DNA of 48,988 nucleotides from Chitinophagaceae bacterium UBA2789 (GTDB taxonomy: Bacteria > Bacteroidota > Bacteroidia > Chitinophagales > Chitinophagaceae). Below are positions 5,772 through 34,737 of the stretch, one piece after another; within the stretch, counting starts at the first letter, position 1; each line of letters starts with the position of its first letter. The position numbers were made by a program, and so were the translations under genes. Below the pieces are notes generated by a model. The model did no database searches. It was given only the letters and a program-made list of their open reading frames with translations, and was not told where the DNA came from. The stretch lies in the NCBI GenBank assembly GCA_002352145.1, contig DEHX01000097.1, forward strand, positions 1 to 48,988, written 5' to 3'.

Positions 5772-6892
5772 AAATTGCCGTAAATACCAGATTACTCCGT
5801 AAAGGGAAATTGGACGGCATAGGCTGGTTTGCCTTTAACACTTTGCAATATATAACAAGGAAAAATCCGGAAGTTGAATTTCATTTTTTCTTTGATTCAG
5901 GAATTGAAAAAGAATTTCTATTTGGCCACAATGTTATTCCTCATAATCTTTTTCCGCCCGCAAAACATGCTGCACTAAATATTCTATGGTCTGAGGTAAG
6001 TGTAAAGGCCAAACTTAATTCAATCAAACCAGATTTATATTTTTCACCGGATGGTATGCTGTGCCTTGGATGGCAAGGGAGGCAATATGCAGTTATTCAT
6101 GATATAAACTTTATGCACTATCCAGAGTTTCTTAAATATTCGAACCGGAAATATTACCGGTATTATTTTCCAAAATTTGCAAAAAAAGCCAGTAGAATAG
6201 CTACCGTTTCTTCTTACAGCAAAGAAGATATTGTAAAGACATTTGGTATTGAAGAGGACAAAATAGATGTAGTTTACTGCGGAATAAATTCATTTTTTAA
6301 GCCATTGAGTATTGATGAAATTTCTGCTATTCGGAATAAATATACTTCTGGAGAACTCTATTTTCTTTTTGTTGGTGCTTTAAGCCCAAGAAAAAATGTG
6401 AAAGGGCTACTTCAGGCTTTTGAATTTTTTAAAAAGGAAACTGCTTCCAGGTTCAAATTAGTAATAGCAGGGAGTGAAATGTATCGATCAGGAGAGTTGA
6501 TTGACTATAAAAATACTATGACGTTTGGCCAGGATGTTATTTTCACAGGAAGAGTAAATGACCAGACGCTTAATGATATCTATGGCGCAGCACATGCATT
6601 TGTATTTGTTCCTTTTTTTGAAGGATTTGGAATCCCTTTAATTGAAGCAATGCAATGTCATGTGCCTGTAATTGCTTCAAATGTAACATCTTTACCTGAA
6701 GTTGCTGGTGAAGCAGCTATATTGGTAGATCCTGCAAACATTAATGAAATTAAAAACGCAATGATCAGGATTTATAATAATGATGATTTGCGCAATGATC
6801 TGATTAAAAGGGGTGATATACAAAAAAAGCTGTTTTCATGGGAGAGAACTGCTGATCTTTTATGGGAAGGCATAAATAAGTGCCTTTACTGA
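5768..6892 (+). CDS. GT4 (GT-B fold) glycosyltransferase
   Basis: FVGALSPRKN and FEGFGIPLIEAMQC motifs. ATGA-type overlap with the upstream gene. Confidence 0.93.
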   Translation: MKIAVNTRLLRKGKLDGIGWFAFNTLQYITRKNPEVEFHFFFDSGIEKEFLFGHNVIPHNLFPPAKHAALNILWSEVSVKAKLNSIKPDLYFSPDGMLCLGWQGRQYAVIHDINFMHYPEFLKYSNRKYYRYYFPKFAKKASRIATVSSYSKEDIVKTFGIEEDKIDVVYCGINSFFKPLSIDEISAIRNKYTSGELYFLFVGALSPRKNVKGLLQAFEFFKKETASRFKLVIAGSEMYRSGELIDYKNTMTFGQDVIFTGRVNDQTLNDIYGAAHAFVFVPFFEGFGIPLIEAMQCHVPVIASNVTSLPEVAGEAAILVDPANINEIKNAMIRIYNNDDLRNDLIKRGDIQKKLFSWERTADLLWEGINKCLY

Positions 6893-7821
6893 TAGGTGAT
6901 TACTAATTTTGGATGCTTGCCCGTATTCGAATATTTACTTGAACAAAATATCCTGGAGTTATAAGGTGTTTCATTTTGCAGGCCGATTATGAAGCCATGA
7001 TTTCCTGTAGCAACCATAGCTGCTACCTGGTTTTTAACATCTATATTCGTCAGGTCAAGAAATGAGGCCGAAGTATGTGGTATTAACACCTGGTCCGAAA
7101 CAGAAGAGGCTGGTTGGTTATTCCAGGTAATTGTAGAAGCAGTCCAGTTGGACAACAGCCTGCGTATATACATTGCATTATTTGTCCCAAAATTAGCATC
7201 AACATGGTTTCCGTTTAAAGGAGTTGGGTTAGAATAAAGTGTAAGACTGGCAGTTAAAATGGTTGCTGAAGCCGGTATTGAGCTTAAATCAAATTTTAAA
7301 GCACCTCTGAAATCATAAGGTGCACCTCCGGAGGTCCACGATGCAGCCACTAGTTCCGGAGCTGTAGGATCTGTTTGTGACACTCCTCCCAAAACAGCAA
7401 AATGAACTTCATTTGTATTATTCGCTGGCTGTAAAGAAAGTGTTTGTATAGGGGCCTGTGAACAAATGATTTTGGTTGTATCCACTCCAGTCAATCCGGC
7501 ATTATCTACTACCATTAATTGAAAAATGTAAGTACCGGCAATAACTCCTGTTATGGTTGTAGTGGGTGAACCCGGTGAGGTCACTACAGGAACATTTGGA
7601 CCTGAAACAAGACTCCACAAATAAGCAGTAATGGTTCCGTTCGTTGTAGTGCCTGAGCCGGTAAGGGTTATGGAAGCTTGTGGTAGTTGAACTGTTTGAT
7701 TAGGTCCTGCATTTGCTGTAGGTGGTGATTGTAACAGCTGCTCATCAGTTTCTTTTTGACAACTCCAGAATAATATACCGCTTAAAACAGCTGCCAGGGT
7801 ACTTTTTAGATAAGGCTTCAT
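6886..7821 (-). CDS. Lipoprotein with a PKD/K319L-like Ig domain and a C-terminal DNRLRE (CBM96-like) domain
   Basis: Start moved to ATG 7821: MKPYLKSTLAAVLSGILFWSC with lipobox Cys. PKD motifs PPTANAGPNQTV and GTYIFQLMVVD. DNRLRE motifs RGALKFDLSSIP, TITWNNQP and PKLVITY. Confidence 0.8.
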   Translation of the reverse strand: MKPYLKSTLAAVLSGILFWSCQKETDEQLLQSPPTANAGPNQTVQLPQASITLTGSGTTTNGTITAYLWSLVSGPNVPVVTSPGSPTTTITGVIAGTYIFQLMVVDNAGLTGVDTTKIICSQAPIQTLSLQPANNTNEVHFAVLGGVSQTDPTAPELVAASWTSGGAPYDFRGALKFDLSSIPASATILTASLTLYSNPTPLNGNHVDANFGTNNAMYIRRLLSNWTASTITWNNQPASSVSDQVLIPHTSASFLDLTNIDVKNQVAAMVATGNHGFIIGLQNETPYNSRIFCSSKYSNTGKHPKLVITYQ

Positions 7822-7868
7822 TAGTTTGTTGTAAATATTGAACAGTAAGTTACTTTTTTTTACTCTAA

Positions 7869-8975
7869 TTATAGACTGAGCTTCAATTTTTTTATGATCT
7901 GATCCCAATTATAGAGTGAATAAAACTCCGCTGGTGTGGCTTCTTTTGTTTCTGTATACATGATCCGGTTTACAAATGTCTCCCAATCATTGTCGTCTAC
8001 AATGGTAAGTTTCTTACCACAAACCGACTTTTCTATTCCGGCTGCCCCGGTTTTTGTGGCTATGACAGTAGCACCAAAAGCAATAGCTTCAACCATTTTG
8101 GTCTTTACACCACCGCCACTTTGTACCGGGTTGAGCATAATGTCTGCCGCTTTAAAATAAATAGTGATGTCATCTACAAAGCCCGCATAGATGATATTTT
8201 TATCTGCATAGGATTTGAGGTTATTCATTTCATCCGGCAAGCCTTTGCCACAGATGACAATCTTGTATTTGAAACCTTCTTTTTTTATCAGAAGTGGGTT
8301 TATGTTTTCAAGGATAACTTTTAGCGCATCCCTATTGGGTTTATAATTTAATAAACCATTAAACAAAAGTATTTTTTCTTCAACGGGAATATTATGTTTT
8401 CCAGCTATTTGATTCCGGTATTGCAATCTGTTTTCAGGATATTTCTCTATTTCAACACCGAAAGGAACATCGAAGCACCTTGTGGGTTCAATTTTCCAGG
8501 TATTAATGGCGAACGATTTGTCTTCGGGAGTAATAAAAAAAATTCCATCTGCTTTTTTCAAACAGCTTTTTTCATACCATTTTAGAATGGGCCACCACCA
8601 GCGGCCTGTACTTTTGAAACGCTGGTATTCGATATTATGCGTATGAATCAAGGTTTTTATCCCGGTTCTTTTTCTGACCCGGTAAGCAAGCCAGGCATAA
8701 TAAGGATGCTCCCATATTACCGTATCGAAACCACCTTCACTTACTATTGCCGCGATTTTTTTAATAAGGCTCCTGTCATAATAGCGGGAAAATGATCTTT
8801 TTAAAAGCGGAATCGTTTTATAGGAAGTAGCCAGCGAAAAATCATTTCCCTCCGTAGAAATAACGGTGAGGTCGGTTTCTTTTCCCAGGTTGTGATAAAA
8901 CTGCGCAATGAACTTTTGGCCCCCTGAAAAGTAAGGAAGATAAGGATAAGGGGCTATGGCAAGAACCTTTTTCAT
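7869..8975 (-). CDS. GT4 family glycosyltransferase
   Basis: Start moved to ATG 8975 (MKKVLAIAPYP). HTHNIE and GGGVKTKMVEAIAFG motifs. Confidence 0.9.
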   Translation of the reverse strand: MKKVLAIAPYPYLPYFSGGQKFIAQFYHNLGKETDLTVISTEGNDFSLATSYKTIPLLKRSFSRYYDRSLIKKIAAIVSEGGFDTVIWEHPYYAWLAYRVRKRTGIKTLIHTHNIEYQRFKSTGRWWWPILKWYEKSCLKKADGIFFITPEDKSFAINTWKIEPTRCFDVPFGVEIEKYPENRLQYRNQIAGKHNIPVEEKILLFNGLLNYKPNRDALKVILENINPLLIKKEGFKYKIVICGKGLPDEMNNLKSYADKNIIYAGFVDDITIYFKAADIMLNPVQSGGGVKTKMVEAIAFGATVIATKTGAAGIEKSVCGKKLTIVDDNDWETFVNRIMYTETKEATPAEFYSLYNWDQIIKKLKLSL

Positions 8976-8983
8976 GGATCTGT

Positions 8984-11482
8984 TCAGCTGGATTTCCGGC
9001 TTTGTCTCCACGCCATAAACAATCCTCCTACTAAACTCACCAGGATCACTATTGAAGCCATAAACATGATCGAAGTGCCCTTCTTTACTGATTCAGGTTC
9101 AAACGAAAATTTAATAGTGTGTTTTCCTGTTGGAATAGAAAGCCCACGAAGAATATAGTTTACGTTGCAATAGTCCACTTTCTTTCCATCGAGATAAGCA
9201 TTCCAGCCTTTGGGATAATAGATTTCGCTGAAAACTGCAAACTGCGAACCATTACAATTAGCCTCGTATTCTACTGCATCGTTATCAAATTTTGTCATTT
9301 TGATTGTGGATGTGGAATCGGGTTGGGGTTGCGTAACCAGGTTACTGAATGATTTTTCAACAATTGCTGTGTCTTTTAAGTTAGTAGTTCCAATGGCTTT
9401 AAAGGCGGCTACTCTGTCTTCGGTAACTCTAACATTCTTTACCAGCCAGCAATTGCCATATGCATCCGGATTTGGAATGACAATTTCCTGTTTTAGCTGA
9501 GGATCCCGGTAGACGATGTACTTTGTATTCAGCATATTCAATACCTGCTGGTTGGTGTTGCCGCTCATGTATTTTTCAATTACATCCTGGTATATCCTCA
9601 ACTTAGCCGGATGGTAACCGCCTACAGATTTATGATAATATGACGTTCTGGACTCACTGAATGTGCCGCCACTACTGGTTCCTGCCATATTCAATACACG
9701 ATAATTAGGATCGGTATCTTTTAAAATCTGTTCGTCGATAGCCGTTTTAGCAAAGTTGGTATTAGTGTAATCATCAGCAGGTACAAACAATTGATCCTGC
9801 CTGTTTTCATAAGGGCCTTTGTCATTACTAAAATATAAGTGGCTGGCAAATGTGATTTCAATGGTGCTTACAATCAATAATACAATGGCTGCAATTTTTG
9901 CATTAATTGTATTTTTGAAATAAAGATAGAACACACTCAACGCAACTATCATCAGGCCTAGAGTTCTTAGTAGTTGTCCCCCAAACAGCGCTTTTCTGTC
10001 AGCTTTCAATCCATTTACGACAGCCTGCCCAATTGCTTCGTTTTGTGCCTGCTGCGAGATACTTTGTGCTATCTCCGGATCATATGGTGATGAATAATTT
10101 GCGGAGAAGTAAAAAATACCTAACAGGGCAAATAAACCTCCTGCCGTATATAGTATTTTTTTAAAATCTGCTTTTTGTAACTGGCCTCCAAAAAGTAATT
10201 GTTGCAGTGTAAGTACTGCGGCAATTCCCATTGTGAACTGGGGGATCACTTGTGCAAAAGCAGGAGAACGGAATTTGTTGTATAAAGGAAGATGTTCGAA
10301 TAAGAAAGTATTAAAACCCGGAAGATATTTGCCCCATGTCATTAAAATACCCAAAACAGTAGCTGCCAGCAAGCCCCATCGCATCGGCGTTTTTAATAAA
10401 ACAAAACCAATCAGTCCGAGCAAGCAAATTATAACTCCGAGGTAAGCCGGGCCGGATGTGTACAATTTTCCCCAGTAAACAGGCATGCCTTGTGCTACCT
10501 GCACAGCATTGTTTTCCGGTACACCCAAATCAGTTAATTTCTTTACTACATTCGATTCTTCACCGGCATAACGACCGCTATAACCCCCGTAGGCGTTCGG
10601 CATAATCAATGACACCGTTTCTCCTTTACCAAGGCTGTATTCAAAAGCATAAGTTGTATCAAGCCCTTTTGTTTTGATGGCTTTTACTGTGTCGCTTGTA
10701 ATGTCAAGATCTTTACCTCCCCGCATTGTGAATTTGCTATATTCTGAAGTGGTCATCAGTATAAGAGCATTACCTGCAATACCTATCAATCCAGATAGAA
10801 TTGTTATGGCTCCGGCTATAGCAATATGTTCCCAGTCCTTTTCTTTTATCCATTTTACGAGGTAAGCCAGGGTGAGTATTACTGCAATTAAAAAGAAATA
10901 ATAAGTTACCTGCAAGTGGTTAACGCCTATTTGCTGGTAGGCAGCAAATGTGGTGAGTGCAAAACCAAGCCAATACTTTTTTTCATAAATATTGATAATA
11001 CCGGCCAGTACCAAAGGCATAAAAGCTGTTGCCAGCATTTGTGTATCATGCCCCGCTGCAACGATTACAGGATTATAAGTTGAAAAGGCATAGGCTAGTG
11101 ACCCTAGCATACCCACAATCGGGTTTATCCGTAATGTCAGGCATAGTATATAAAAGCAGATACAGGCCAGGAAAAAGAAGTTGATTGGTTTAGGCGTCCA
11201 TAGAGACAATATGCTGATCATATCCGGCATTACACTTTTACCTTCCATCGCCACCTGGTAGTTTGGCATTCCACTGAACAAATTGGGATTCCAGAGAGGG
11301 TAGTGGCCATTTTTTTCTTTGTATTCAAAAGCGTTTTGAGCCATCCCTTTCCAGCCCACATTATCATGTTGGTTCAATACATTTCCTTCCAGAACAGGTT
11401 TACAAAACAGGGCGGAAATGACCAGGAAAACAACAACAGCTATAACATGCGGTAAAATCTTTTTCAGCAGCAGATTGTTCAT
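8984..11482 (-). CDS. YfhO family polytopic membrane protein (GT-C-like)
   Basis: More than 10 hydrophobic segments. PLWNPNLFSGMP, SVGGYHPAKL and FSEIYYPKGWNAYLDG...NYILRG motifs typical of YfhO. Confidence 0.88.
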   Translation of the reverse strand: MNNLLLKKILPHVIAVVVFLVISALFCKPVLEGNVLNQHDNVGWKGMAQNAFEYKEKNGHYPLWNPNLFSGMPNYQVAMEGKSVMPDMISILSLWTPKPINFFFLACICFYILCLTLRINPIVGMLGSLAYAFSTYNPVIVAAGHDTQMLATAFMPLVLAGIINIYEKKYWLGFALTTFAAYQQIGVNHLQVTYYFFLIAVILTLAYLVKWIKEKDWEHIAIAGAITILSGLIGIAGNALILMTTSEYSKFTMRGGKDLDITSDTVKAIKTKGLDTTYAFEYSLGKGETVSLIMPNAYGGYSGRYAGEESNVVKKLTDLGVPENNAVQVAQGMPVYWGKLYTSGPAYLGVIICLLGLIGFVLLKTPMRWGLLAATVLGILMTWGKYLPGFNTFLFEHLPLYNKFRSPAFAQVIPQFTMGIAAVLTLQQLLFGGQLQKADFKKILYTAGGLFALLGIFYFSANYSSPYDPEIAQSISQQAQNEAIGQAVVNGLKADRKALFGGQLLRTLGLMIVALSVFYLYFKNTINAKIAAIVLLIVSTIEITFASHLYFSNDKGPYENRQDQLFVPADDYTNTNFAKTAIDEQILKDTDPNYRVLNMAGTSSGGTFSESRTSYYHKSVGGYHPAKLRIYQDVIEKYMSGNTNQQVLNMLNTKYIVYRDPQLKQEIVIPNPDAYGNCWLVKNVRVTEDRVAAFKAIGTTNLKDTAIVEKSFSNLVTQPQPDSTSTIKMTKFDNDAVEYEANCNGSQFAVFSEIYYPKGWNAYLDGKKVDYCNVNYILRGLSIPTGKHTIKFSFEPESVKKGTSIMFMASIVILVSLVGGLFMAWRQSRKSS

Positions 11483-15967: not shown

Positions 15968-15995
15968 AAAAAGTCATCGTAAGATGGCTTTTTTT
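15968..15995. terminator. Intrinsic terminator after tRNA-Cys, probably bidirectional
   Basis: AAAAAGTCATC-GTAA-GATGGCTTTTTTT hairpin between convergent genes. Confidence 0.8.
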
Positions 15996-16929
15996 ATTGT
16001 GCAATGTAAACCCGTTTTCCGTTCAGCCGGCTTAAAGAATCTAAAACACGGCTGGTATCGGCAGGCGATACTGGTAAAAGAATGTAAAGTGTAAACAAAC
16101 TGGAGTCCCTTGTTTCCATCTCAACCTGCCACTGAAATGTTTTTAACCGGTTATACCTGTACAAAGCTCTTTCCTTCGGTGAAACTTCTAGAATGAATTT
16201 TTTAGTACCTGCCGGCATTATTGGAGGTTGAATTGATGTAACAGTTGTATCTTTTTTTTGAATAGTAGTGTCGGGAGATTTGCTTATTGTACTTTGATTC
16301 CGGTTTGTCTCATTTTTATCAGAGCTCACTACTGTTTCTTCCTTTTCACTTCTTTCAGTTCTTTTCTTATAAACTGTATATCCTCCCCAAATAGCAAGAC
16401 CAAAGCCCAGCAGAATCAGACCTATGGCCGCAGGCTTCTTCCAGGCAGATTTTGTGTGTTTATTATAAAATACACTTTTATAATCGCCAACCGGCTCTTC
16501 GCTTATTGTTTCCTTTCCGTATTCCCTTAGAACGGCTGAATCCATTCGATCCGGGATTACCTGTCCGGGGGTAAAACTGAATTCGCCGGTTTGGGTTTTC
16601 ACAAGGCTGCCAATTCCTTCGAAAAGAAAAGGTTTACCAATATTCAGAAACTGGCTGGCCAGTTCAAGATGAGAATAAAGGTCTGCTGAAGCAAGAGCTT
16701 TTATTTTACCACTATGTTCCGAAATAAACGCAATAAGATCAGGATCTTCTTTAACAGTCCGGTCATGCAGAAATGAAACGCCTTCTAGTGCAGATGTTTT
16801 GTTGTGTTTATCTTTTTCCAGAGCCGGCACTATATCATTATCAAGGGTAAATATACCAATACCGGGCAGGTAAAGCTGCTTTTTGGTATAGAGATATTGC
16901 GCCAGCAGGGTGGTGATTTTCAAAGTCAT
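15994..16929 (-). CDS. HU-CCDC81-like N-terminal domain, single TM helix and periplasmic SPOR-like C-terminal domain
   Basis: Start moved to ATG 16929. Repeated HU-like strands LYLPGIGIF and FLFEGIGSLVK, TM AAIGLILLGFGLAIWGGY, Ser/Thr-rich linker and a small alpha/beta C-terminal domain. The SPOR assignment is inference. Confidence 0.6.
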   Translation of the reverse strand: MTLKITTLLAQYLYTKKQLYLPGIGIFTLDNDIVPALEKDKHNKTSALEGVSFLHDRTVKEDPDLIAFISEHSGKIKALASADLYSHLELASQFLNIGKPFLFEGIGSLVKTQTGEFSFTPGQVIPDRMDSAVLREYGKETISEEPVGDYKSVFYNKHTKSAWKKPAAIGLILLGFGLAIWGGYTVYKKRTERSEKEETVVSSDKNETNRNQSTISKSPDTTIQKKDTTVTSIQPPIMPAGTKKFILEVSPKERALYRYNRLKTFQWQVEMETRDSSLFTLYILLPVSPADTSRVLDSLSRLNGKRVYIAQ

Positions 16930-17040
16930 GGAGTTAAGAAGCACAAGATATATATTTTGTTCCGGCAATGCAAGGGTGAAAGTCCTTTGTGATTTACCTT
17001 TGCCCATTCTAAGATTGTGAAAGAATAGGAGAATAAATGT

Positions 17041-17384: not shown

Positions 17385-17855
17385 ATGATTAAGAATCTAC
17401 AGTTAACTGCCGTTTTTGTAACGATGATGGTCACATTCTCTGGTTGTTTGAAAGACAATAGTTGTGACCCCAAAAGTGTAGAAAGTGAGGAAGCGGCGAT
17501 ACAAGCCTATGCTGCCGCTAATTCGATTAATGCGGTGAAGCATTCGAGCGGCCTGTATTATCAGATTATAAATCCCGGTAGCGGACCTACGCCAACTGTC
17601 AATTCAGTAGTATCTGCCCGGTATGTTGGCAAGCTGACAGACGGAACTATTTTCGATTCACAAACGGTGAACCCTGTTTCTTTTCCGTTGGGTAATACCA
17701 TTTTGGGCTGGCAGTTGGGTATTCCGCTGGTTCAGAAGGGCGGCACTATTAAGCTGATAATTCCATCAGCTTTAGCATATGGTTGCACTGGGCAGGGCCC
17801 AATTCCGGGTAATTCAATTTTATTTTTTGAAGTAAACGTAGTAGACGTTCAATAA
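17385..17855 (+). CDS. FKBP-type peptidyl-prolyl isomerase lipoprotein
   Basis: Lipobox FSGC. YVGKLTDGTIFDS, ILGWQLG and LIIPSALAYG...IPGNSILFFEV motifs. Confidence 0.93.
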   Translation: MIKNLQLTAVFVTMMVTFSGCLKDNSCDPKSVESEEAAIQAYAAANSINAVKHSSGLYYQIINPGSGPTPTVNSVVSARYVGKLTDGTIFDSQTVNPVSFPLGNTILGWQLGIPLVQKGGTIKLIIPSALAYGCTGQGPIPGNSILFFEVNVVDVQ

Positions 17856-17906: not shown

Positions 17907-19334
17907 TTGCCACACGAAGCCATCTCCGTTTTTGACATTTTTAAAATAGGCGTTGGTCCTTCAAGTTCTCATACGCTGGGGCCCTGGCGGGCGGCACAGC
18001 GGTTTGTGAAAGCTATCAGGGAAAGTAACAGGCTTTATGAAGTGAAATCTGTCAGGGTGTTACTTTATGGCTCCCTGGCCAAAACCGGCAAGGGACATGG
18101 AACTGATGTAGCTGTACAGTTGGGTTTATGCGGTGATGACCCGGTAACATTTGCTGTAGAACAAATCGCATCAAAGATCAGTGACATTGCAACTATGAAG
18201 AAAATCCTCCTGCTGGGTCTGCATGAGGTTGATTTTAATCCTGCAGAAGATATTGAGTTTCTGATTACAGAAAACCTGCCTTATCATCCCAATGCAGTTA
18301 CTTTTCTTGCCGATATGGTTTCTGGTGAATCAATTGCAGAAACTTTTTATTCTATTGGCGGCGGGTTTGTGGTTAAGGAAAATGAGGAGGTTTCAGGCGC
18401 ACAGGACGAACAACTTCCTTTTCCTATTAATACAGCCGATGACCTGTTGCACTGGTGTATAAAAACAGGCATGTCGATAAGTGAGATTGTACTGGAAAAC
18501 GAACATATCTGGAGAAGTGAAGATGAAACCAGGGCAGGTTTGTTGAATATATGGCGGGTCATGAAAGAATGTATATACCGCGGTTGTCACTCACCTGGTA
18601 TGCTTCCCGGAGGATTGAATGTAAAAAGGAGAGGGGCAGAATTAAACAAGAAACTATTAGCCGGAAAATCATACAATGATTACGAATCATGGTTGAAAGC
18701 AATCCGTTCCGGAGGAAATGATTTTAAATACACACTGGACTGGGTTAGTTGTTTTGCCCTGGCAGTTAATGAAGAGAATGCTTCGTTTGGCAGAGTAGTC
18801 ACAGCGCCTACCAATGGGGCAGCAGGAGTGATTCCAGCTGTACTTCAGTATTATATTGCTTTTTGCGATGGGAATAGTGAAGAAAAAATAGTTCATTTTC
18901 TTTTGACTGCGGCAGAGATTGGCAGCATTTTTAAAAAGGGTGCTACACTTTCAGCAGCAATGGGTGGGTGCCAGGCGGAGATCGGCGTTTCTTCAGCTAT
19001 GGCAGCTGCAGGTCTCACAGAATGTATGGGAGGTACACAAAAACAAGTAATGATGGCCTCTGAAATTGCGATGGAACATCATTTGGGCCTTACTTGTGAT
19101 CCGATTGCAGGGCTGGTCCAGGTACCTTGTATTGAGCGAAATACGATGGGAGCTATCAAGGCCATTACTGCATCGCAGTTGGCTTTGCAAAGCACTCCTG
19201 ATTTTGCCAAAGTTTCATTGGATGCAGTGATTAAAACCATGTGGGATACTGCAAAAGACATGGATTTTAAATATAAAGAAACGGCTGACGGAGGTCTGGC
19301 TGTTAATGTACCGCTCAGCTTACCCGAATGCTGA
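17907..19334 (+). CDS. sdaA: L-serine ammonia-lyase, Fe-S dependent, single chain (TTG start)
   Basis: [30 protein letters not shown] and HHLGLTCDP...VPCIERN motifs. Confidence 0.95.
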
Positions 19335-19367: not shown

Positions 19368-22169
19368 ATGCGGAGACTTTTACTTGCCTGTATCTTTTCA
19401 TCAATTACTTTAATCACTTTTTCTCAACAGTTCGGAGGAAACCCTCCCTCACTTAAGTGGAAACAAATTAGTACAGATACAGTAAGGGTAATTTATCCTG
19501 CCGGACTTGACAGCCATGCACAAAGGGTGGCTTCAGTTGTTCACTACCTTGCTGCCAACAAGCCATTTTCCCTGGGTGATCAATTGAAGAAAGTAGATAT
19601 CGTATTGCAAAACCAGACAACCATCGCTAATGGCTATGTTCAGCTTGGACCTTTTAGAAGTGAGTTCTTTTTAACTCCTGAACCTGTTAATTTTAACCAG
19701 GGAAGTTTAAGCTGGACAGATCAATTGGCATTGCATGAATACAGGCATGTGCAGCAATTCAACAATTTTAATAACGGATTGAGTAAGTTGATGAAAGTGC
19801 TTTTTGGAGAAGATGGTTATACCCTTGCCATTAATGCTTCCATACCCGACTGGTTTTATGAAGGCGATGCTGTGTACCAGGAGACTGCAGTAAGTAAGCA
19901 GGGAAGGGGAAGGCTGCCACTTTTTATGAATGCTTATCCTTCTCTCTGGCAGGCCGGGAAAAAGTACTCCTGGATGAAACTGCGAAACGGTTCTTTAAAA
20001 GATTATGTACCCAACCATTACAACCTTGGCTATTTACTGGTCAATTATGGGTACCAGAAATACGGAATTGATTTTTGGAAAAAAGTAACCCGGGATGCCA
20101 GTGCATATAAAGGTCTATTCTATCCTTTCCAGTCTGCAATAAAAAGACATGCGGGAATTGATTACAAAACCTTCACTAAGCAGGCTTTTGATTTTTATAA
20201 ATTACAAACAGACACAGTAGTAAAGTTTGAAAATTTTTTAATACCTGTTAAGAAGAGTTATGTTACCAGTTATTATTTCCCTTACAATGCCGGGTCGGAT
20301 TCGCTTATTTATCTGAAATCCAGTTACCGGCAGCGACCTGTATTTTACATAAAAGATAAGGAGGGTGAACATCGTCTGAAAACAAGGGATATTTCAATTG
20401 ATGAACAATTCTCCTACAGTAACGGAAAGATTGTTTATTCGGCTTATGAAACAGATGTACGCTGGGGCTGGAGAGATTACGGTGTTATTAAATTATTAGA
20501 TGTAAAAACGGGGAAACAGCAAACGCTGACAAAAAAATCAAAATACTTTACCCCCGATATTTCTTCCGATGGTTCAAAAGTGGTGGCTGTTCAAAATCAC
20601 AATGATGGTAGCAGTGAATTGCATGTGCTTAATACCAGTGATGGAAAGGTTTTGAGGCGTATTCATTCATCTGAGATAGCAGTATTTACGGATCCCAAAT
20701 TTATTGATCAGGATAATCTTGTCACACCAGTAAGACTAAGAGACGGTAAAATGTGCCTGGCAACTGCTGAGATATCCACCGGGAACATTATCCGCCTTAC
20801 TCCGCCAACTTTTAATGTGGTTGGTTATCCATGTGTAAATAATGGAGTCATTTATTTTACGGCCAACTATGAAGGGAATGATGATGTTTTTGCTCTGCGG
20901 CTAAGCGATAAGAAAATATTTAGAATCAGCAACGGCCCCCTTGGCAATTATTATGTGAATGCAGGAAATGGAAAAATTACCTGGTCAGCTTTTACTGCTG
21001 AAGGATATCAATTGAAACAAGTACTGGAAAGTGAAATTGTATGGAATGAAGTTGGTAATGCAGTAATTGAATCATTGAATGAAAAATACCCGGTAAGTCA
21101 TGCTGCTGTGCCTGGTGATATTTTGCTATCCAAAGTGCCTCAGCGGTTTTTTTCCAATGAAAAGTACAAAAAATCAACACGGTTACTGAATTTTCATAGC
21201 TGGAGACCTTATTACTCCGATCCGATCTTTACTTTCTCGTTGTATGGTGAGAATGTACTGAATACGTTACAAACTGAATTGTATTATCTCTATAATGAAA
21301 ACGAAAGAACCAGTGCCGCAGGCTTGAGCATGACATATGGAGCTTTTTTCCCTTTTATCAGTGTGGGAACAGAATACACATTTAACCGGCAGGATGTAAT
21401 TAATAACCATGTTCGCCAATGGGATCAGCTGGATACAAGAGTAGGGTTAAATATACCGTTGAATTATGCAAGCGGCCAGACTTTTAAGAGCTTTAATGCA
21501 GGCAGTAATTATGTGTTAAGAAATGAGTTTAACAAAGGCCAGTTTGCAAACTTATTGGGTAATACTTCTTTTAGCTATCTCCTGCACACCATTTCATGGA
21601 CGCAACAGATACAGAGAGCGGTACAGCATATTTTCCCCCGATTTGCTTATACGGTTTCTGCCAGTCATCGCCATGCAATTACCAGTGTAACCGGTTATCA
21701 ATTCATTGCTAACGGGTCGTTATATGTTCCGGGATTACTTAGTAATCAAAATCTTGTATTCACAGGTTCTTTCCAGCAACGGGATACTTTATCGCAAGTA
21801 GTATTCTCCAATCGCTTTGGTTATTCAAGAGGCTATGAAGGACGTTACTTTTCCCGTATGTGGCGGTTGTCGGCCAATTATCATTTCCCTTTGTGGCATA
21901 CAGACTGGGGATTTGGAAATATTTTGTATCTCCAGCGTATCAGGGCCAATGCATTTTATGATTTTACTAAAGTCTATTCAAGAGATAAAAGGGTGACTGC
22001 CGACCAGAGAAGTGTAGGGGGTGAAATATTCATAGATACCAAATGGTGGAACCAATACCCGTTAACCTTTGGTTTCCGGATTAGCCATATGCTTGACCGT
22101 GACCAGTTTGACGGTTTCAAAGGAACCGTATTTGAATTTGTACTGCCCGTAAGTATTATCCCGAGATAA
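19368..22169 (+). CDS. Exported protein with a gluzincin-type metallopeptidase domain, a TolB/PD40-like beta-propeller and a C-terminal Omp85-like barrel
   Basis: Signal peptide ending TFS-Q. HEYRH followed by WFYEGDAV. PD40-type FTPDISSDGSKVVAV and FTDPKF. Barrel motifs YSRGY, AFYD and RSVGGE. Confidence 0.7.
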   Translation: MRRLLLACIFSSITLITFSQQFGGNPPSLKWKQISTDTVRVIYPAGLDSHAQRVASVVHYLAANKPFSLGDQLKKVDIVLQNQTTIANGYVQLGPFRSEFFLTPEPVNFNQGSLSWTDQLALHEYRHVQQFNNFNNGLSKLMKVLFGEDGYTLAINASIPDWFYEGDAVYQETAVSKQGRGRLPLFMNAYPSLWQAGKKYSWMKLRNGSLKDYVPNHYNLGYLLVNYGYQKYGIDFWKKVTRDASAYKGLFYPFQSAIKRHAGIDYKTFTKQAFDFYKLQTDTVVKFENFLIPVKKSYVTSYYFPYNAGSDSLIYLKSSYRQRPVFYIKDKEGEHRLKTRDISIDEQFSYSNGKIVYSAYETDVRWGWRDYGVIKLLDVKTGKQQTLTKKSKYFTPDISSDGSKVVAVQNHNDGSSELHVLNTSDGKVLRRIHSSEIAVFTDPKFIDQDNLVTPVRLRDGKMCLATAEISTGNIIRLTPPTFNVVGYPCVNNGVIYFTANYEGNDDVFALRLSDKKIFRISNGPLGNYYVNAGNGKITWSAFTAEGYQLKQVLESEIVWNEVGNAVIESLNEKYPVSHAAVPGDILLSKVPQRFFSNEKYKKSTRLLNFHSWRPYYSDPIFTFSLYGENVLNTLQTELYYLYNENERTSAAGLSMTYGAFFPFISVGTEYTFNRQDVINNHVRQWDQLDTRVGLNIPLNYASGQTFKSFNAGSNYVLRNEFNKGQFANLLGNTSFSYLLHTISWTQQIQRAVQHIFPRFAYTVSASHRHAITSVTGYQFIANGSLYVPGLLSNQNLVFTGSFQQRDTLSQVVFSNRFGYSRGYEGRYFSRMWRLSANYHFPLWHTDWGFGNILYLQRIRANAFYDFTKVYSRDKRVTADQRSVGGEIFIDTKWWNQYPLTFGFRISHMLDRDQFDGFKGTVFEFVLPVSIIPR

Positions 22170-22177
22170 GCTATGCT

Positions 22178-24796
22178 TTAAAGAGTTTGAAGACTTTCTT
22201 CAATCACTTTAATCTTGGCTTCCGCATCTGCCTTTTTCTTTCGTTCGATCTCAATGACTTCGGGTTTGGCATTTTGTACAAATCTTTCATTGCTTAATTT
22301 CTTATCTACTGATGCCAGGAATCCTTTCAGATAATCAAGATCTTTTTGCAATTGTAGCTTCTGCGAACTGGTATCAAGTAGTGTTGTTGTTTCAATGAAA
22401 AATTTATCTTTTTGGACTACTACTGTAATGCTATTAGCTATACTACTGTCAGTATAATTAATTGAGGATGCATTAATCTGTTTACACAAAACAGTTTCAA
22501 GCTTTTTATACGCAGCTGTATTCTCAGACTGTATGTGTAATTTAATCGTTTCTTTTGGCTTCAATTGGTTCTTATTTCTGGCATCCCTTATGCCGGAGAT
22601 TACTTCTTTCAGTAAGGAACCATCTGCAAGAATAGCGGTGTCAGCTAATTTTACCGGGTTTAACTGCTTTACTGTAAGATCATCGGCTTGAGCTTTTAGC
22701 TGATGGTATATTTCTTCTGTTACAAATGGCATGAAAGGATGCAGTAATTGCATAAGCTGCTCAAAGAATTCCACTGTTTTTTTATAAACAGCTTTATTGA
22801 TTGGTTGTTCAAATCCCGGCTTTACCCATTCCAGGTACCAACTGCAGAAATCATCCCAAATAAGTGAGTAAACCGTTTTCAATGCTTCGCTGAGCCTGAA
22901 GTCTTTGAACTGGTTATCCAATTCTGTTCTTGCCTGGTTAAGGCGGTGTTCAAACCATTCTACTGCAAAGCTGTTTTCAGCATCTTTTAATTGCCCATCT
23001 GTCTGCCGCCCTTCCCACATTTTCACCAGCTTCAGGGCATTCCACATTTTGTTGATGAAAAATCTACCCTGTTCATTGCCTGCTTCATCCCACATCAGGT
23101 CATTACCGGCAGGAGATGATATCATTATGCCAAAACGAACGGCATCGGCGCCATCTTTCTCAATCATTTCAAGCAAATCGGGTGAATTACCCAACTGCTT
23201 ACTCATTTTTCTGCCGATTTTGTCTCTTACAATACCGGTAAAATAGACTTCGTTAAAAGGTTTCAGGCCCTTGTATTCATAACCAGCCATGATCATCCTG
23301 GCTACCCAGAAAAAGATGATCTCAGGGGCTGTTACCAGTGTATTAGTAGGGTAATAATAGTTAACGTCTTTGTTGCCCGGATTACTATATCCTTTGAATA
23401 CCTCAAAGGTCCAAAGCCAGCTGGAGAACCAGGTATCAAGGCAGTCCTCATCCTGCTTAATTGTGGCATTGTCTATTCCATATAGTTTTTTGAAAAGTTC
23501 CCTTGCTTCTTTTTCCGTGGCAGCAACTACATATCTGCCTTCGGCATCGTACCAGGCCGGTATACGATGTCCCCACCAGAGTTGCCGGGAGATACACCAG
23601 TCTTTGATATTCTCCATCCAGTGTCGGTACAGGTTCTTGAACTTGGAAGGATAAAACTTAATTTCGTCATCCATTACGGCATTTAAAGCCGGTCCGGAAA
23701 TTTTCTTCATGTCAACCCACCATTGCAAAGAAAGACGGGGTTCCACCACTACATCTGTTCTTTCGCTATAACCCACCTCGCTGGTATAGTCCTCAATCTT
23801 TATAATGTGCCCTTTTTCTTCCAGTTCTTTTGCAATCTTCTTGCGGGCTTCAAAACGGTCTTCACCTATGAATATTTCAGCTTGTTCATTAAGCGTTCCG
23901 TCTTCGTTTAGAATGTCAACAACTTCAAGGTTATGCTTTTGTCCAAGCTGGTTGTCATTCATGTCATGAGCAGGTGTCACTTTCAAAGCTCCTGTTCCAA
24001 ATTCCATTGTTACATATTCATCAGTAATAATGGGAATACGTCGGTTGATTAGTGGAACAAAGGCAAATTTGCCATGCAGGTTTTTGTATCTTTCATCTTC
24101 AGGATGCACACAAATGGCAGTATCACCCATGATGGTTTCAGGTCTCACTGTAGCAATTACGATGAATTCGTCACCCGGCACATCTAATTTGTATCTTAAA
24201 TGATATAGCTTTTGCTGTGTTTGTTTACGGATCACCTCTTCATCACTCAAGGCTGTTTTTGCCTTTGGGTCCCAGTTGATCATCCTTTTGCCACGGTAAA
24301 TGAAACCTTTGTTGTATAAATCAATAAAAACATTAATTACAGACTGGTAATAATCAGGATCCATGGTAAAAGTGGTACGGTCCCAATCAAGACTGCATCC
24401 AAGTTTTTTTAATTGCTGCAGGATGATGCCCCCGTATTTTTCTTTCCACTCCCAGGCATATTTTAAAAACTCCTCTCTGCTTAAGGATGATTTGGCAATA
24501 CCCCTGTCCCGGAGCATATGTACCACTTTGGCTTCGGTCGCAATAGAGGCATGGTCTGTACCGGGTACCCAGCAAGCATTTTTTCCCTGCATGCGGGCAC
24601 GACGAATCAATATGTCCTGAATAGTATTATTCAGGCAGTGTCCCATGTGCAGGACACCGGTTACATTAGGTGGTGGGATAACAACTGTATAAGGTTCACG
24701 ATCGTCAGGTTCACTATGAAAATATTTTTTGTCCAGCCAATGCTGGTACCATTTCTGTTCAGCGGCACTGTGGTCAAAATTCTTGCTCAATTCCAT
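22178..24796 (-). CDS. valS: Valyl-tRNA synthetase
   Basis: PPPNVTGVLHMGH (HIGH-like), DWCISRQLWWGH, KMSK motif and C-terminal coiled-coil arm. TATTTTTG box at 24867-24860 on -. Confidence 0.98.
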   Translation of the reverse strand: MELSKNFDHSAAEQKWYQHWLDKKYFHSEPDDREPYTVVIPPPNVTGVLHMGHCLNNTIQDILIRRARMQGKNACWVPGTDHASIATEAKVVHMLRDRGIAKSSLSREEFLKYAWEWKEKYGGIILQQLKKLGCSLDWDRTTFTMDPDYYQSVINVFIDLYNKGFIYRGKRMINWDPKAKTALSDEEVIRKQTQQKLYHLRYKLDVPGDEFIVIATVRPETIMGDTAICVHPEDERYKNLHGKFAFVPLINRRIPIITDEYVTMEFGTGALKVTPAHDMNDNQLGQKHNLEVVDILNEDGTLNEQAEIFIGEDRFEARKKIAKELEEKGHIIKIEDYTSEVGYSERTDVVVEPRLSLQWWVDMKKISGPALNAVMDDEIKFYPSKFKNLYRHWMENIKDWCISRQLWWGHRIPAWYDAEGRYVVAATEKEARELFKKLYGIDNATIKQDEDCLDTWFSSWLWTFEVFKGYSNPGNKDVNYYYPTNTLVTAPEIIFFWVARMIMAGYEYKGLKPFNEVYFTGIVRDKIGRKMSKQLGNSPDLLEMIEKDGADAVRFGIMISSPAGNDLMWDEAGNEQGRFFINKMWNALKLVKMWEGRQTDGQLKDAENSFAVEWFEHRLNQARTELDNQFKDFRLSEALKTVYSLIWDDFCSWYLEWVKPGFEQPINKAVYKKTVEFFEQLMQLLHPFMPFVTEEIYHQLKAQADDLTVKQLNPVKLADTAILADGSLLKEVISGIRDARNKNQLKPKETIKLHIQSENTAAYKKLETVLCKQINASSINYTDSSIANSITVVVQKDKFFIETTTLLDTSSQKLQLQKDLDYLKGFLASVDKKLSNERFVQNAKPEVIEIERKKKADAEAKIKVIEESLQTL

Positions 24797-31785: not shown

Positions 31786-34737
31786 ATGAGAAAAAGCTAT
31801 AGCTTTTTGGCTGCATGGTTGATGGCTTGCCTTATTTCTTTTAGTGCTTATGCACAATCCATAACCATTTCAGGTACAGTAAAAAACAGCACCACCAAAG
31901 AGGGTGTACCTGCTGTATCTGTAGCCGTAAAAGGTACCAGCCGGGGTACTTACACAAATTCCGATGGTGAATTCACCCTTACAGTACCCAAACTTCCCGT
32001 AGTATTAGTATTTACTTCTGTTGGTTTTGACAGCCAGGAAGTAACCGTATCCGATGCCTCTCAGCCTGTTGCGGTTGATTTTAAAGTGAATACTGCGCTT
32101 GGACAAGAAGTAGTTGTTGCTGCTGCCCGTGCTCCACAGCGTTTACTGGAGTCTCCCGTTACGGTAGAAAGACTCAGTACAACTGCTCTCCGTAATATGC
32201 CGGCGCCCAACTATTATGAGGCAATCGGAAACCTGAAAGGTGTAGATGTGCATACTGCCAGTTTAACTTTCCGAACAATTACTACCCGTGGATTTGTTAG
32301 TTCAGGTAACCTTCGTTTGAATCAGTTGATTGATGGAATGGATAACCAGGCTCCCGGTTTGAACTTTTCTGTAGGTAGTGTAGTAGGACCCTCTGATCTG
32401 GATGTAGACAACGTAGAAGTTCTCTCCGGCGCCTCTTCAGCATTGTATGGCTCTGGTGGTATGAACGGAACTGTATTGGTTACGACAAAGAATCCATTCA
32501 AATACCAGGGTCTAAGCTTCAATGTCAAGCAAGGTATTATGCATGTTGACGGAAAGCAGCGTAACGCAGCTCCTTTCTATGACTGGAATTTCCGTTGGGC
32601 AAAAGCTTACAAAAACAAATTTGGTATAAAACTCGCAGCCCAGTTAGTAAAAGGTAGCGATTGGGAAGCTGAGGATTACAGAAATAAACAACAGATCGGT
32701 ATTTTAAGTAAAGTGGTGGGCGGCAACCGCCAAAATGACCCCAACTTTAATGGTATCAACATCTATGGAGATGAGACCAGTGCTGATATGAACGGTTTTG
32801 CCTATTTCGTACAGGATCAAACCAGAAGGCAAATACTTGCTGCCTCTTCCGTTATCATACCTGGAGGTTTTGATGTCGTTAATGCTGCTAATACATATTT
32901 CACAGCTATTGGCAATCCTCAATACCCTACAAATGCGCAAATCTCCACTTTCATAACTTCTCTTGCTGCGTTGGGCCCTACAGCACAGGCTGCCGTACAG
33001 CAAATGATGCCTTTCTATATTGGTTTAAGAAATAATTACTTTAATAAAGCTAGTGTTTCAAGAACTGGTTACCAGGAAGATCAACTGGTTGATTACAATA
33101 CAATGAACTTCAAGCTGACAGCTGGTTTACATTATAAAATAACCAATAACCTGGAGGTTTCATTGAACAGCTACCTTGGTACAGGTACAACAGTTTATAC
33201 CGGAGCTGACCGTTATTCTCTGCGTAACCTTAAGATGGCACAGCATAAATTGGAGTTTCGTTCTAAAAACTGGTTTATCCGTGGTTACACAACCCAGGAA
33301 AATGCAGGTGATTCATACAATGCATCAGCATTGGGCGCATTCCTTAATGAATCATACAGAGCCAGCTCTGCCTGGTTCCCGCTTTATATTGGTACTTTCT
33401 CAGAGGGACGCAGGTTGAATGGTGTTGCTGGTCAATTCCCAAGCGATTTCCAACTGCATCAAGCCGCAAGGGCTTCTGCTGACGTTGGTCGCTGGGTGCC
33501 CGGAACAAAGGCCTTTGATTCTGTAGCTGCCGTGATTAAGAAAACCCCAATCAGAAGGGGCGGAGCCTTATTCCTGGATAAATCAGATTTATGGGCTTCT
33601 GATGCACAGTTCAATATTTCTGAAATATTCAAATTCTCTAAGGTAATTGATGTAGTAGCTGGTGTTAGCTGGAAACAATGGGTAATGAATTCTCAGGGTA
33701 CCATTTTTGCTGATACTAACCAGGTTATCAGGATAAACGAATATGGTGCATTTATTCAGTTAAAGAAAAGCCTGTTCAACGATTATCTTACATTGAGTGC
33801 ATCAGGCCGTTTCGATAAGCAAACAAATTTTGATCCACGGTTTACTCCAAGGTTTACTGCGGTGTTAAAGGTTGTAAAAGACAACTTTATCCGTCTTTCT
33901 TATCAGTCAGCTTACCGCTTCCCATCCAACCAAAACCAATATATCAGCCTTGTAACAGGATCTGGTACTTTGATGGGTGCTTTGCCTGAATTTCAGACCT
34001 ATTATAAATTGAATTCAACTTTACCCGGCTATACTGCAGCAAGTGTATTAGCTTACCGTTCCGGTACACTGGCAGATTCAAGCCGCCTGGTTAGAGCACA
34101 GTACAACCCTGTAACACCGGAAACTGTGAAATCATATGAATTGGGTTATAAAGGTGTAATTGGTAAGAAATTACTGGTGGATGCTTATGTATACTACAGC
34201 CGTTATGCTAATTTCCTTGTTAGCGAAGCAGTGGTACAGTCTCGTAACGGAGCCAATTTTGAATTGTACTCTCCATACAGCAGTACCAACGTTTCTTATG
34301 TACAAAACTCAAAAGATGTTATAAAATCCCAGGGCTGGGGTATAGGCGTAGAATACCAGGCGATTAAGAATTACTTTTTCTATGGAAACGTATTCTCTGA
34401 TTACCTTAAAAATGTTGATCCAAGTGTTGTTACATTCTTCAATGCACCTAAATACCGTTTCAACGTAGGTTTGAGGAACGATAATGCTTATAAGAATATA
34501 GGCTTTAACGTGGTATTCAAATGGCAGGATAATAACTACTATGAAGGAACCTTCGTTAGTGGTACACTTCCTTACTTCGGATGGTGGGATGCCCAGGTTA
34601 CTTACCGTCCCCAGGGTACAAAGAGTGTATTTCGGATAGGTGGAACTAACCTTGGTAACTTCTATGCTAGGACTGGTTTTGGAAGCCCTGCAGTAGGGGG
34701 CTTATACTATATGAGCTATGGTTACAACCTGTTTTAA
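31786..34737 (+). CDS. TonB-dependent outer-membrane receptor with N-terminal CarboxypepD_reg-like domain
   Basis: Signal peptide AYA-Q, plug-end motif VEVLSGASSALYGSGGMNGTV, barrel motifs FTPRFTA and PETVKSYELGYK, C-terminal YGYNLF. No adjacent susD. Confidence 0.93.
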   Translation: MRKSYSFLAAWLMACLISFSAYAQSITISGTVKNSTTKEGVPAVSVAVKGTSRGTYTNSDGEFTLTVPKLPVVLVFTSVGFDSQEVTVSDASQPVAVDFKVNTALGQEVVVAAARAPQRLLESPVTVERLSTTALRNMPAPNYYEAIGNLKGVDVHTASLTFRTITTRGFVSSGNLRLNQLIDGMDNQAPGLNFSVGSVVGPSDLDVDNVEVLSGASSALYGSGGMNGTVLVTTKNPFKYQGLSFNVKQGIMHVDGKQRNAAPFYDWNFRWAKAYKNKFGIKLAAQLVKGSDWEAEDYRNKQQIGILSKVVGGNRQNDPNFNGINIYGDETSADMNGFAYFVQDQTRRQILAASSVIIPGGFDVVNAANTYFTAIGNPQYPTNAQISTFITSLAALGPTAQAAVQQMMPFYIGLRNNYFNKASVSRTGYQEDQLVDYNTMNFKLTAGLHYKITNNLEVSLNSYLGTGTTVYTGADRYSLRNLKMAQHKLEFRSKNWFIRGYTTQENAGDSYNASALGAFLNESYRASSAWFPLYIGTFSEGRRLNGVAGQFPSDFQLHQAARASADVGRWVPGTKAFDSVAAVIKKTPIRRGGALFLDKSDLWASDAQFNISEIFKFSKVIDVVAGVSWKQWVMNSQGTIFADTNQVIRINEYGAFIQLKKSLFNDYLTLSASGRFDKQTNFDPRFTPRFTAVLKVVKDNFIRLSYQSAYRFPSNQNQYISLVTGSGTLMGALPEFQTYYKLNSTLPGYTAASVLAYRSGTLADSSRLVRAQYNPVTPETVKSYELGYKGVIGKKLLVDAYVYYSRYANFLVSEAVVQSRNGANFELYSPYSSTNVSYVQNSKDVIKSQGWGIGVEYQAIKNYFFYGNVFSDYLKNVDPSVVTFFNAPKYRFNVGLRNDNAYKNIGFNVVFKWQDNNYYEGTFVSGTLPYFGWWDAQVTYRPQGTKSVFRIGGTNLGNFYARTGFGSPAVGGLYYMSYGYNLF

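Follow-up and report, generated by a model that had tools for sequence, protein, structure and literature searches.

A probable WD40-like Omp85 outer-membrane protein with a predicted zinc-peptidase domain in a Chitinophagaceae bacterium

Contig DEHX01000097.1 of Chitinophagaceae bacterium UBA2789 (assembly GCA_002352145.1) was analysed over positions 1 to 48,988, and this whole stretch of 48,988 nucleotides, with a G+C content of about 40% throughout, is referred to here as the window. At 19368..22169 on the forward strand it contains a complete gene with an ATG start and 933 codons plus a stop, encoding a protein of 933 amino acids; the coordinates given below for parts of the protein are all on that strand. 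A preliminary description of the locus, made from the sequence alone, had placed the open reading frame correctly, and every motif that it quoted was found at the site claimed for it, ie HEYRH at residues 123-127, WFYEG at 162-166, SRGY at 820-823, AFYD at 862-865, RSVGG at 881-885 and VSIIPR at the C-terminus. The gene product very probably belongs to the WD40-like Omp85 subfamily and reaches the outer membrane after export by Sec; in it a zinc-peptidase domain, a six-bladed TolB-type beta-propeller and a POTRA-less linker precede a diverged 16-stranded barrel that keeps the RGY of loop 6 and the FxD lid-lock motif of strand 13. No paralogue of it was found within the window.

Conservation was followed in an alignment of 88 representatives having 27-48% identity to the 933-residue protein. 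Residues 1-19 (19368..19424) form a predicted signal peptide with a signal peptidase I site between TFS and QQ, which would leave Gln at +1. The signal peptide had been proposed previously and is borne out by the hydrophobic N-terminus and by a cleavage site of A/S followed by Q that is conserved among the 88 relatives; position 19 is Ala, Ser or Gly in 85 of them and position 20 is Gln in 86. An N-terminal Gln after signal peptidase I cleavage is the Bacteroidota 'Q-rule', and the predicted site fits it. A lipoprotein signal at Cys8 was also considered and is unlikely, with merely seven residues before the Cys, which is not conserved.

The signal peptide is followed by a gluzincin-like metallopeptidase domain (residues 20-292, 19425..20243), assigned from a structural model, its Foldseek neighbours and conservation. 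The isolated domain, modelled with 124 sequences, reached a predicted local distance difference test score (pLDDT) of 85 and a predicted template-modelling score of 0.83, and in the model it combines a mixed beta-sheet with one helix that carries the active site, another that carries the Glu, and a C-terminal subdomain made of helices. Gluzincins are built in the order sheet, backing helix, sheet, HExxH helix, further helix and Glu helix, and the secondary-structure elements of the model follow that order. When the model was compared with the PDB using Foldseek, 46 of the top 50 neighbours were M1 or M9 gluzincins and a 47th was the M1-like TAF2. The M1 neighbours included IRAP, ERAP1, PfA-M1, LTA4H and a Deinococcus M1 enzyme, together with the aminopeptidase N family protein 4fgm, Anopheles APN1 and tricorn-interacting factor F3; the M9 neighbours were Vibrio and Clostridium collagenases.

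Within this domain HEYRH (19734..19748) is invariant in 88 of the 88 representatives and aligns with HEYVH in a proteobacterial branch of the family, described below, which also keeps the downstream Glu. H123 and H127 are the predicted zinc ligands and E124 the predicted general base. WFYEG (19851..19865), whose counterpart in the sister branch is LLEGLAVY, contains the invariant residues E165 and G166, and E165 would provide the third ligand from the helix after next; in the models H123, E124 and H127 sit on helix 116-132 and E165 on helix 161-176. Y218, invariant within NHYNLG (residues 216-221, 20013..20030) and aligned with a conserved Tyr of the sister branch, is a candidate for the Tyr that stabilises the transition state. 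The number of HExxH motifs expected by chance in a protein of this length and composition is 0.014. The preliminary description had proposed a gluzincin arrangement, to be judged by the conservation of HExxH and the Glu among homologues, and their invariance, the conservation of the domain and the M1 and M9 neighbours of its model all agree with that proposal.

The peptidase domain is the best-conserved part of the protein. Mean identity was 45% over residues 20-292 and 53% over the core 116-181; the propeller gave 27% and the barrel 29%. Eighteen columns were invariant in the 88 sequences, and they include H123, E124, H127, E165, G166, A168, E172, G179, R180, G181, Y838 and G884. Since the four most conserved 15-residue segments (87-101; 116-130, with HExxH; 159-173, with the Glu helix; and 207-221, with NHYxLG) all lie in this domain, the strongest selection appears to act on the putative catalytic site. 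The fifth such segment, 837-851, lies in the barrel.

The domain shares with M1 and M9 gluzincins the HExxH motif, a Glu on a later helix and a fold of sheet plus helices, and its HEYRH resembles the HEY(x)H of M9 enzymes. The spacing from the second His to the Glu is 18 residues in M1 enzymes and about 28 in M9, whereas the gap between H127 and E165 is 37 residues. GxMEN is absent from the 933-residue protein and from all of 49 close relatives, and this absence, together with the 37-residue spacing, indicates that, strictly speaking, the domain is no M1 aminopeptidase. The M1 model PF01433 did not match the protein; one relative is named 'Peptidase M1...' by UniRef, and a Pfam M1 match could not be reproduced for it. 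Overall, an intact zinc-peptidase site is predicted in a gluzincin-like fold.

The second domain is a six-bladed TolB/PD40-like beta-propeller (residues 296-568, 20253..21071), recognised by DSSP, Foldseek and profile comparison. DSSP assigned 24 strands to the model between about residues 300 and 565, ie six four-stranded blades. TolB was matched by the full-length model in a Foldseek search of the PDB (E=1e-9) and by the family profile (PDB TolB, E=2.4e-19). A phmmer sequence search of the PDB returned nothing, and the close-family profile gave only TolB, weakly. An NCBIfam TolB match (E=2.4e-5) covers residues 343-516; the score of 23.4 bits for TIGR02800, against a curated cut-off of 343, reflects a match to the propeller only, and a Pfam scan of the protein and of its three pieces gave a sub-threshold propeller match and nothing more. 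PD40 repeats were detected in 10 of 50 diverse relatives from the Bacteroidota branch, which, with the profile match to TolB, upholds the earlier recognition of PD40/TolB-like repeats. The propeller is thus homologous at the profile level to that of TolB, a protein which has in addition an N-terminal TolA-binding domain that is lacking here, and database names such as 'TolB family protein' cover one third of the molecule.

Propeller and barrel are joined by a poorly conserved linker (residues 569-608, 21072..21191), modelled with low confidence. At approximately 40 residues it is too short for a POTRA domain, and PF07244 matched neither the protein nor the 50 relatives, so that the designation POTRA-less was apt.

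Residues 609-931 (21192..22160) are assigned to a diverged Omp85-type beta-barrel on the strength of DSSP, Foldseek and a chain of homology. The full-length AlphaFold2 (AF2) model contains three domains, with the alpha/beta domain at 30-280 and long strands at about 597-925, and the barrel has 16 strands if a short strand at 609-611 is taken as strand 1. In a Foldseek search of the PDB with this model, BamA barrels were matched with E-values of 8e-8 to 2e-6, a probability of 1.0 and about 15% identity (9co2_A at 8e-8, 4n75_B at 7e-7), and BamA was the sole barrel class in the top 50. A Foldseek comparison of a predicted structure was one check suggested in the preliminary description, which had noted a C-terminal region of alternating strands; the region is predicted as a barrel of about 16 strands at about 609-925, has BamA as its structural neighbour at an E-value of about 1e-7, and carries SRGY on the expected loop and AFYD on the expected strand.

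A helix in loop 4 of BamA, RGY in loop 6 and FxD in strand 13 are established features of the family. The AF2 model has a short helix (725-729) in the loop between strands 7 and 8, ie loop 4, as in BamA. SRGY (21825..21836) falls inside a loop of 22 residues (806-827) that connects predicted strands 11 and 12, ie loop 6, and at least 90% of relatives keep R821 and G822; by its sequence and position it is the (V/L/I)RG(F/Y) 'lid-lock' motif, described for Omp85 barrels in PMC11358297. AFYD (21951..21962), on predicted strand 13 and with F863 and D865 conserved in at least 90% of relatives, is by alignment the counterpart of the Omp85 (F/G)xDxG motif. The last Gly of that motif is replaced by Thr in the present protein (FYDFT), and the complete motif is kept in none of the 49 close relatives and in 13 of 87 wider representatives. 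RSVGG (22008..22022) lies on predicted strand 14 and contains the invariant G884. The most conserved element of the barrel, with the invariant Y838, is NYHFPLWHTDWGFGN (residues 837-851, 21876..21920). It is located at the predicted turn between strands 12 and 13, which is periplasmic in the Omp85 topology, and outside the known Omp85 motifs, and it may be a docking site for the soluble domains. The barrel therefore has in common with BamA and TamA the predicted 16 strands, the RGY of loop 6, the FxD of strand 13 and the loop 4 helix; BamA and TamA differ in having POTRA domains where this protein has an enzyme and a propeller, and at the level of sequence the protein matches neither PF01103 nor E. 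coli BamA and TamA.

The preliminary description had also remarked that the C-terminus lacks the usual aromatic residue. In the C-terminal strand and tail, FEFVLPVSIIPR (residues 922-933, 22131..22166), the aromatic end that marks the beta-signal is indeed replaced, and the last residue is Arg in 47 of the 49 close relatives (...IIPR). The trait is a derived one of the closest clade and not family-wide, since a C-terminal Phe, Tyr or Trp is present in 43 of the 87 wider Bacteroidota representatives and in 56 of 60 proteobacterial relatives. According to the alignment, the terminal Phe has been replaced by Ile and followed by a two-residue 'PR' extension in the closest clade only.

The sequence link to Omp85 proteins runs through the proteobacterial branch. 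In a tblastn search of 72,556 plasmids one relative was found, the sole plasmid-borne copy: a 942-residue 'hypothetical protein' (L083; NC_015156: 167205-170033) on the conjugative 247-kb plasmid pA of Vibrio nigripulchritudo, homologous over its full length. Upstream of it are a response regulator and an ATP-binding protein; the gene downstream is for an M66 family metalloprotease. Against the Bacteroidota profile it aligned over 849 columns with a probability of 99.6% and E=7e-24. It has relatives of its own in Vibrio, Photobacterium, Psychromonas, Thalassolituus and Desulfobotulus, and some are named 'Bacterial surface antigen (D15) domain-containing' by UniRef. Two members of this branch (P0402 and P0407) exceed the PF01103 gathering score of 24 bits, reaching 25.0 and 26.7 bits over the C-terminal 300 residues, and in Pfam the peptidase part of the branch gives sub-threshold matches to PF13485 only. 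The consensus motifs of the branch are HEYVH, LLEGLAVY, ALRGYD and FVDSGSAW.

When the profiles of the two branches were aligned at full length using hhalign, the probability was 100% and E=1.7e-39 over 856 columns, with SRGY in register with LRGY and AFYDFT with FVDSGS. Taken singly, the N-domains gave E=3.5e-20, the propellers E=7e-22 and the barrels E=1.3e-4 (probability 53%, 309 collinear columns). The proteobacterial barrel in turn matched E. coli TamA with E=0.0017, and IRGY and FVDSG were in register. As judged from these alignments, the barrel is the most diverged of the domains and yet homologous to bona fide Omp85 barrels. The Omp85 assignment made in the preliminary description is accordingly sustained by the BamA matches, by the RGY and FxD motifs in register with those of the sister branch, and by the two members of that branch that pass PF01103.

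The family is large and well conserved. A word-indexed search found 3373 relatives, all of them unnamed or 'hypothetical' and mostly from Chitinophagaceae. An exhaustive search of representatives clustered at 50% identity gave 3962 at E<=0.001 and 1573 at E<=1e-30, and nearly all of the latter are 900-1000 residues long and align end to end. Counting one genome per species, the gene occurs in at least 587 species, including the cultured Terrimonas, Niabella and Huijunlia, and remoter members are found in Bacteroidales and Thermoflavifilum. Where the sources give a name it is 'TolB family protein' or 'PD40 domain-containing protein'. The gene sequence was found in many activated-sludge metagenomes, and three metatranscriptomes contain short contigs that lie inside the gene at 99% likeness or above, which is weak evidence that it is transcribed.

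The architecture is already known and its function is uncharacterised; the present gene is a somewhat derived member. Heinz and Lithgow, in their 2014 census of Omp85 proteins (Front Microbiol 5:370, PMC4104836), defined a 'WD40-like' subfamily. Their main text treats it via the propeller only, as a 'BamA-BamB fusion', and the peptidase is mentioned solely in a column of the supplement, 'best aminopeptidase hit'. Data_Sheet_3 of that paper contains about 95 WD40-like members, for which the best Phyre2 matches were the BamA/TamA barrel, with a confidence of about 100% for BamA across the subfamily, and the TolB propeller; the templates for the peptidase were the M1 structures 1z5h, 4kxd, 3qnf and 4fgm and the M9 collagenases 4ar1 and 4ar9. 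Several of the census templates or the proteins that they represent (4fgm, 4ar1, and F3 as 1z1w) also appear in the Foldseek list for the N-domain. According to Data_Sheet_2, many WD40-like members carry PF07676 only, without PF01103. POTRA domains are typical of BamA, TamA and TpsB but optional in the noNterm, Metallo and WD40-like subfamilies. A later summary of the group speaks of Omp85 proteins having 'divergent WD40 and peptidase domains' (PMC11358297). The 933-residue protein shares with the WD40-like proteins of the census (PMC4104836) the three-part architecture, the PDB templates and the lack of POTRA domains; it differs in that its branch has a further-diverged barrel, with FYDFT for FxDxG, and its clade has no terminal aromatic residue. 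We found no functional study of the subfamily in the literature, and recent papers on TamL and on the machinery for beta-barrel assembly (BAM) in Bacteroidota do not mention such a protein; it was thus rightly described beforehand as belonging to a recognised and uncharacterised subfamily. One protein with the accession C7PEU5 is, from its prefix, presumably from Chitinophaga pinensis. It is among the Bacteroidota entries of the WD40-like list in PMC4104836.

A second Omp85 subfamily, 'Metallo', was considered as the closest relative and rejected, as its PF00149 domain carries no HExxH. PF00149 is the calcineurin-like metallophosphoesterase family. In PMC4104836 the domain that defines the 'Metallo' proteins is PF00149, without HExxH, and is called a metalloprotease in the text. 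The naming is likely to confuse, with HExxH-bearing Omp85 proteins filed under 'WD40-like'.

The topology of the protein can be deduced from its barrel. With loop 6 on the cell exterior and eleven strands ahead of it, strand 1 should start at the periplasmic face, which would put the peptidase and the propeller in the periplasm. By analogy with known Omp85 barrels, it is therefore likely that both domains are periplasmic and tethered to the outer membrane by the barrel, and the most likely function is that of an outer-membrane-anchored peptidase facing the periplasm. For the mechanism we would offer, tentatively, a division of labour in which the peptidase is the selected, catalytic core, the propeller is a platform that selects substrates, acts as a gate or docks partners, in the manner of the propellers of TolB, BamB and oligopeptidases, and the barrel mainly anchors the activity on the inner side of the outer membrane. 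Among the candidate substrates are outer-membrane proteins that have stalled or remain unfolded. An attractive possibility is that the protein degrades or processes unfolded envelope proteins, as a quality-control enzyme of the BepA kind; it could just as well act on other envelope polypeptides. BepA is a periplasmic M48 metalloprotease active at the BAM complex (PMC13067283) and a functional analogue only: it combines, as the present protein would, an HExxH protease with a protein-interaction domain at the periplasmic face of the outer membrane, but it belongs to an unrelated peptidase family, has TPR repeats in place of a propeller and is soluble or BAM-associated rather than fused to a barrel. 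A more ambitious version, in which the protein is a single-polypeptide equivalent of BAM plus BepA for the surveillance of outer-membrane proteins, would have the barrel seam engage nascent or stalled beta-barrel substrates, the TolB/BamB-like propeller hold the unfolded chain and the gluzincin cleave it, and such a machine would be widespread in Bacteroidota and several other phyla; we think this doubtful. With identity, topology and mechanism taken as one, a periplasm-facing peptidase held by an Omp85 barrel is the best explanation of the data, and on balance we expect it to be right.

Several results weigh against that explanation. The full-length AF2 model is of medium confidence (pLDDT 68.8), with strand 1 and several loops below 50, and the strand count of the barrel, read from the DSSP text of the model, is 15-17. 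PF01103 matched neither the protein nor any of the 50 diverse Bacteroidota-branch relatives, and the same is true of the peptidase-family models of Pfam. The Foldseek scores of the N-domain are weak, with a best E of 0.0075 and template-modelling scores of 0.35-0.5. The barrel-only link between the two branches is modest, as the values given above indicate, and the 80 related loci examined offered no conserved operon partners that would point to a pathway. Using hhalign, the barrel profile gave a probability below 1% against single sequences of E. coli BamA and TamA, a null comparison that is uninformative because a single-sequence template is weak. Because the protein fails the Pfam Omp85 model, its Omp85 membership rests on the structure prediction and the homology chain.

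Of the other explanations, the one that survives best has been suggested by Heinz and Lithgow (PMC4104836), namely that such proteins are auxiliary insertases. The barrel would then be the core, as a paralogue of BamA/TamA, the propeller a BamB-like scaffold and the peptidase secondary. The conserved lid-lock motifs and the resemblance of the barrel to BamA speak for it. The pattern of constraint does not: among the large domains the barrel is under the least constraint (29% identity, where the peptidase has 45%), it has drifted past detection by Pfam, neither the Gly of FxDxG nor the aromatic C-terminal residue survives in the clade, and the strongest selection is on the catalytic motifs. We consider an auxiliary insertase unlikely for the present protein.

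A self-exporting surface protease, which the preliminary description had offered as one of two functions, the other being quality control, is likewise improbable. The barrel would follow a type Vd-like logic and bring the peptidase and propeller fused to it to the cell surface, as PlpD does with its patatin domain, and external substrates would be acted on there. Omp85 barrels such as FhaC and PlpD can translocate polypeptides (PMC4104836), M9-like collagenase folds are typically those of extracellular enzymes, and the plasmid-borne homologue in Vibrio nigripulchritudo adjoins the M66 metalloprotease gene. PlpD-like proteins consist, however, of patatin, POTRA and an Omp85 barrel, and the 933-residue protein matches neither patatin nor POTRA, whereas PlpD and TpsB have at least one POTRA domain. 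Furthermore, self-export would require some 550 residues, a six-bladed propeller among them, to pass through the membrane in an unfolded state, the propeller has its nearest relatives in TolB, which is periplasmic, and the most conserved element of the barrel is at a predicted periplasmic turn. A periplasmic location was judged more likely than self-export.

That the barrel is an unrelated or convergent anchor, with RGY and FxD there by coincidence, is very improbable. It would account for the missing PF01103 matches in the Bacteroidota branch, the negative comparison with single BamA and TamA sequences and the probability of 53% for the barrel-only link, but it is at odds with the full-length collinear homology to proteins that do match PF01103, with both RGY and FxD being in register, with a Foldseek result that contains BamA and no other barrel class, and with the Phyre2 confidence of about 100% for BamA across the subfamily (PMC4104836). 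Equally hard to sustain is a pseudo-peptidase, with an HExxH domain that binds without catalysing: none of the peptidase family models matches, the 37-residue His-Glu spacing is unusual and the M1 GxMEN is absent, but E124 and the three predicted ligands are invariant across two phylum-level branches and pseudo-enzymes usually lose such residues.

An Omp85 specialist will not be surprised by the architecture. The family is nonetheless large and old, with 1573 representatives at 50% clustering (E<1e-30) and with genomes from at least 587 Chitinophagaceae-like species that carry it; full-length relatives reach Bacteroidales, Vibrionaceae and Desulfobotulus, and the 2014 census (PMC4104836) lists many more accessions. 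Nearly every member is annotated as 'hypothetical' or, which is misleading, as 'TolB family', the Bacteroidota branch of the WD40-like Omp85 proteins escapes PF01103, and the strongest purifying selection is on an intact predicted zinc-peptidase site that is invisible to family models. A three-domain description would improve the annotation. If the protein is an enzyme working on the inner side of the outer membrane, envelope proteostasis would gain a new player in a phylum whose BAM machinery has recently been shown to be unusual, and the invariant predicted catalytic site offers a clear experimental target throughout one bacterial family and in several other phyla.

The gene is surrounded by housekeeping genes. 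An L-serine dehydratase gene (17907-19334) is the upstream neighbour, and valS, for valyl-tRNA synthetase (22178-24796), lies downstream on the opposite strand in convergent orientation. The stop codons of the two convergent genes (22169 and 22178) are separated by 8 bp, so there is no intergenic space for a terminator hairpin. Among the 80 related loci, the convergent valS was kept beside the gene in 52 and was the sole conserved neighbour. The upstream genes differ between genomes and mostly lie on the opposite strand, and for that reason no conserved operon partner was found in the 80 loci; the gene is apparently a stand-alone unit. Two genes upstream of it, at 17385-17855 (forward strand), is an FKBP-type peptidyl-prolyl isomerase (PF00254, E=4e-19), whose N-terminus (...VTFSGC) resembles a lipoprotein signal. 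Its linkage to the gene was seen in only 5 of the 80 loci and is probably incidental.

Further away in the window, a SusC-like TonB-dependent receptor with CarboxypepD_reg and Plug domains is encoded at 31786-34737 on the forward strand. A cluster at 4821-11482, comprising glycosyltransferases (GT1, GT4), a PKD/CBM96 protein and a YfhO-like membrane protein, is probably a cell-surface polysaccharide or glycosylation locus. At 15994-17007, on the reverse strand, there is a gene for a 337-residue protein with a predicted membrane segment and a weak, sub-cut-off match to a CCDC81-like HU domain (E=1.8e-4).

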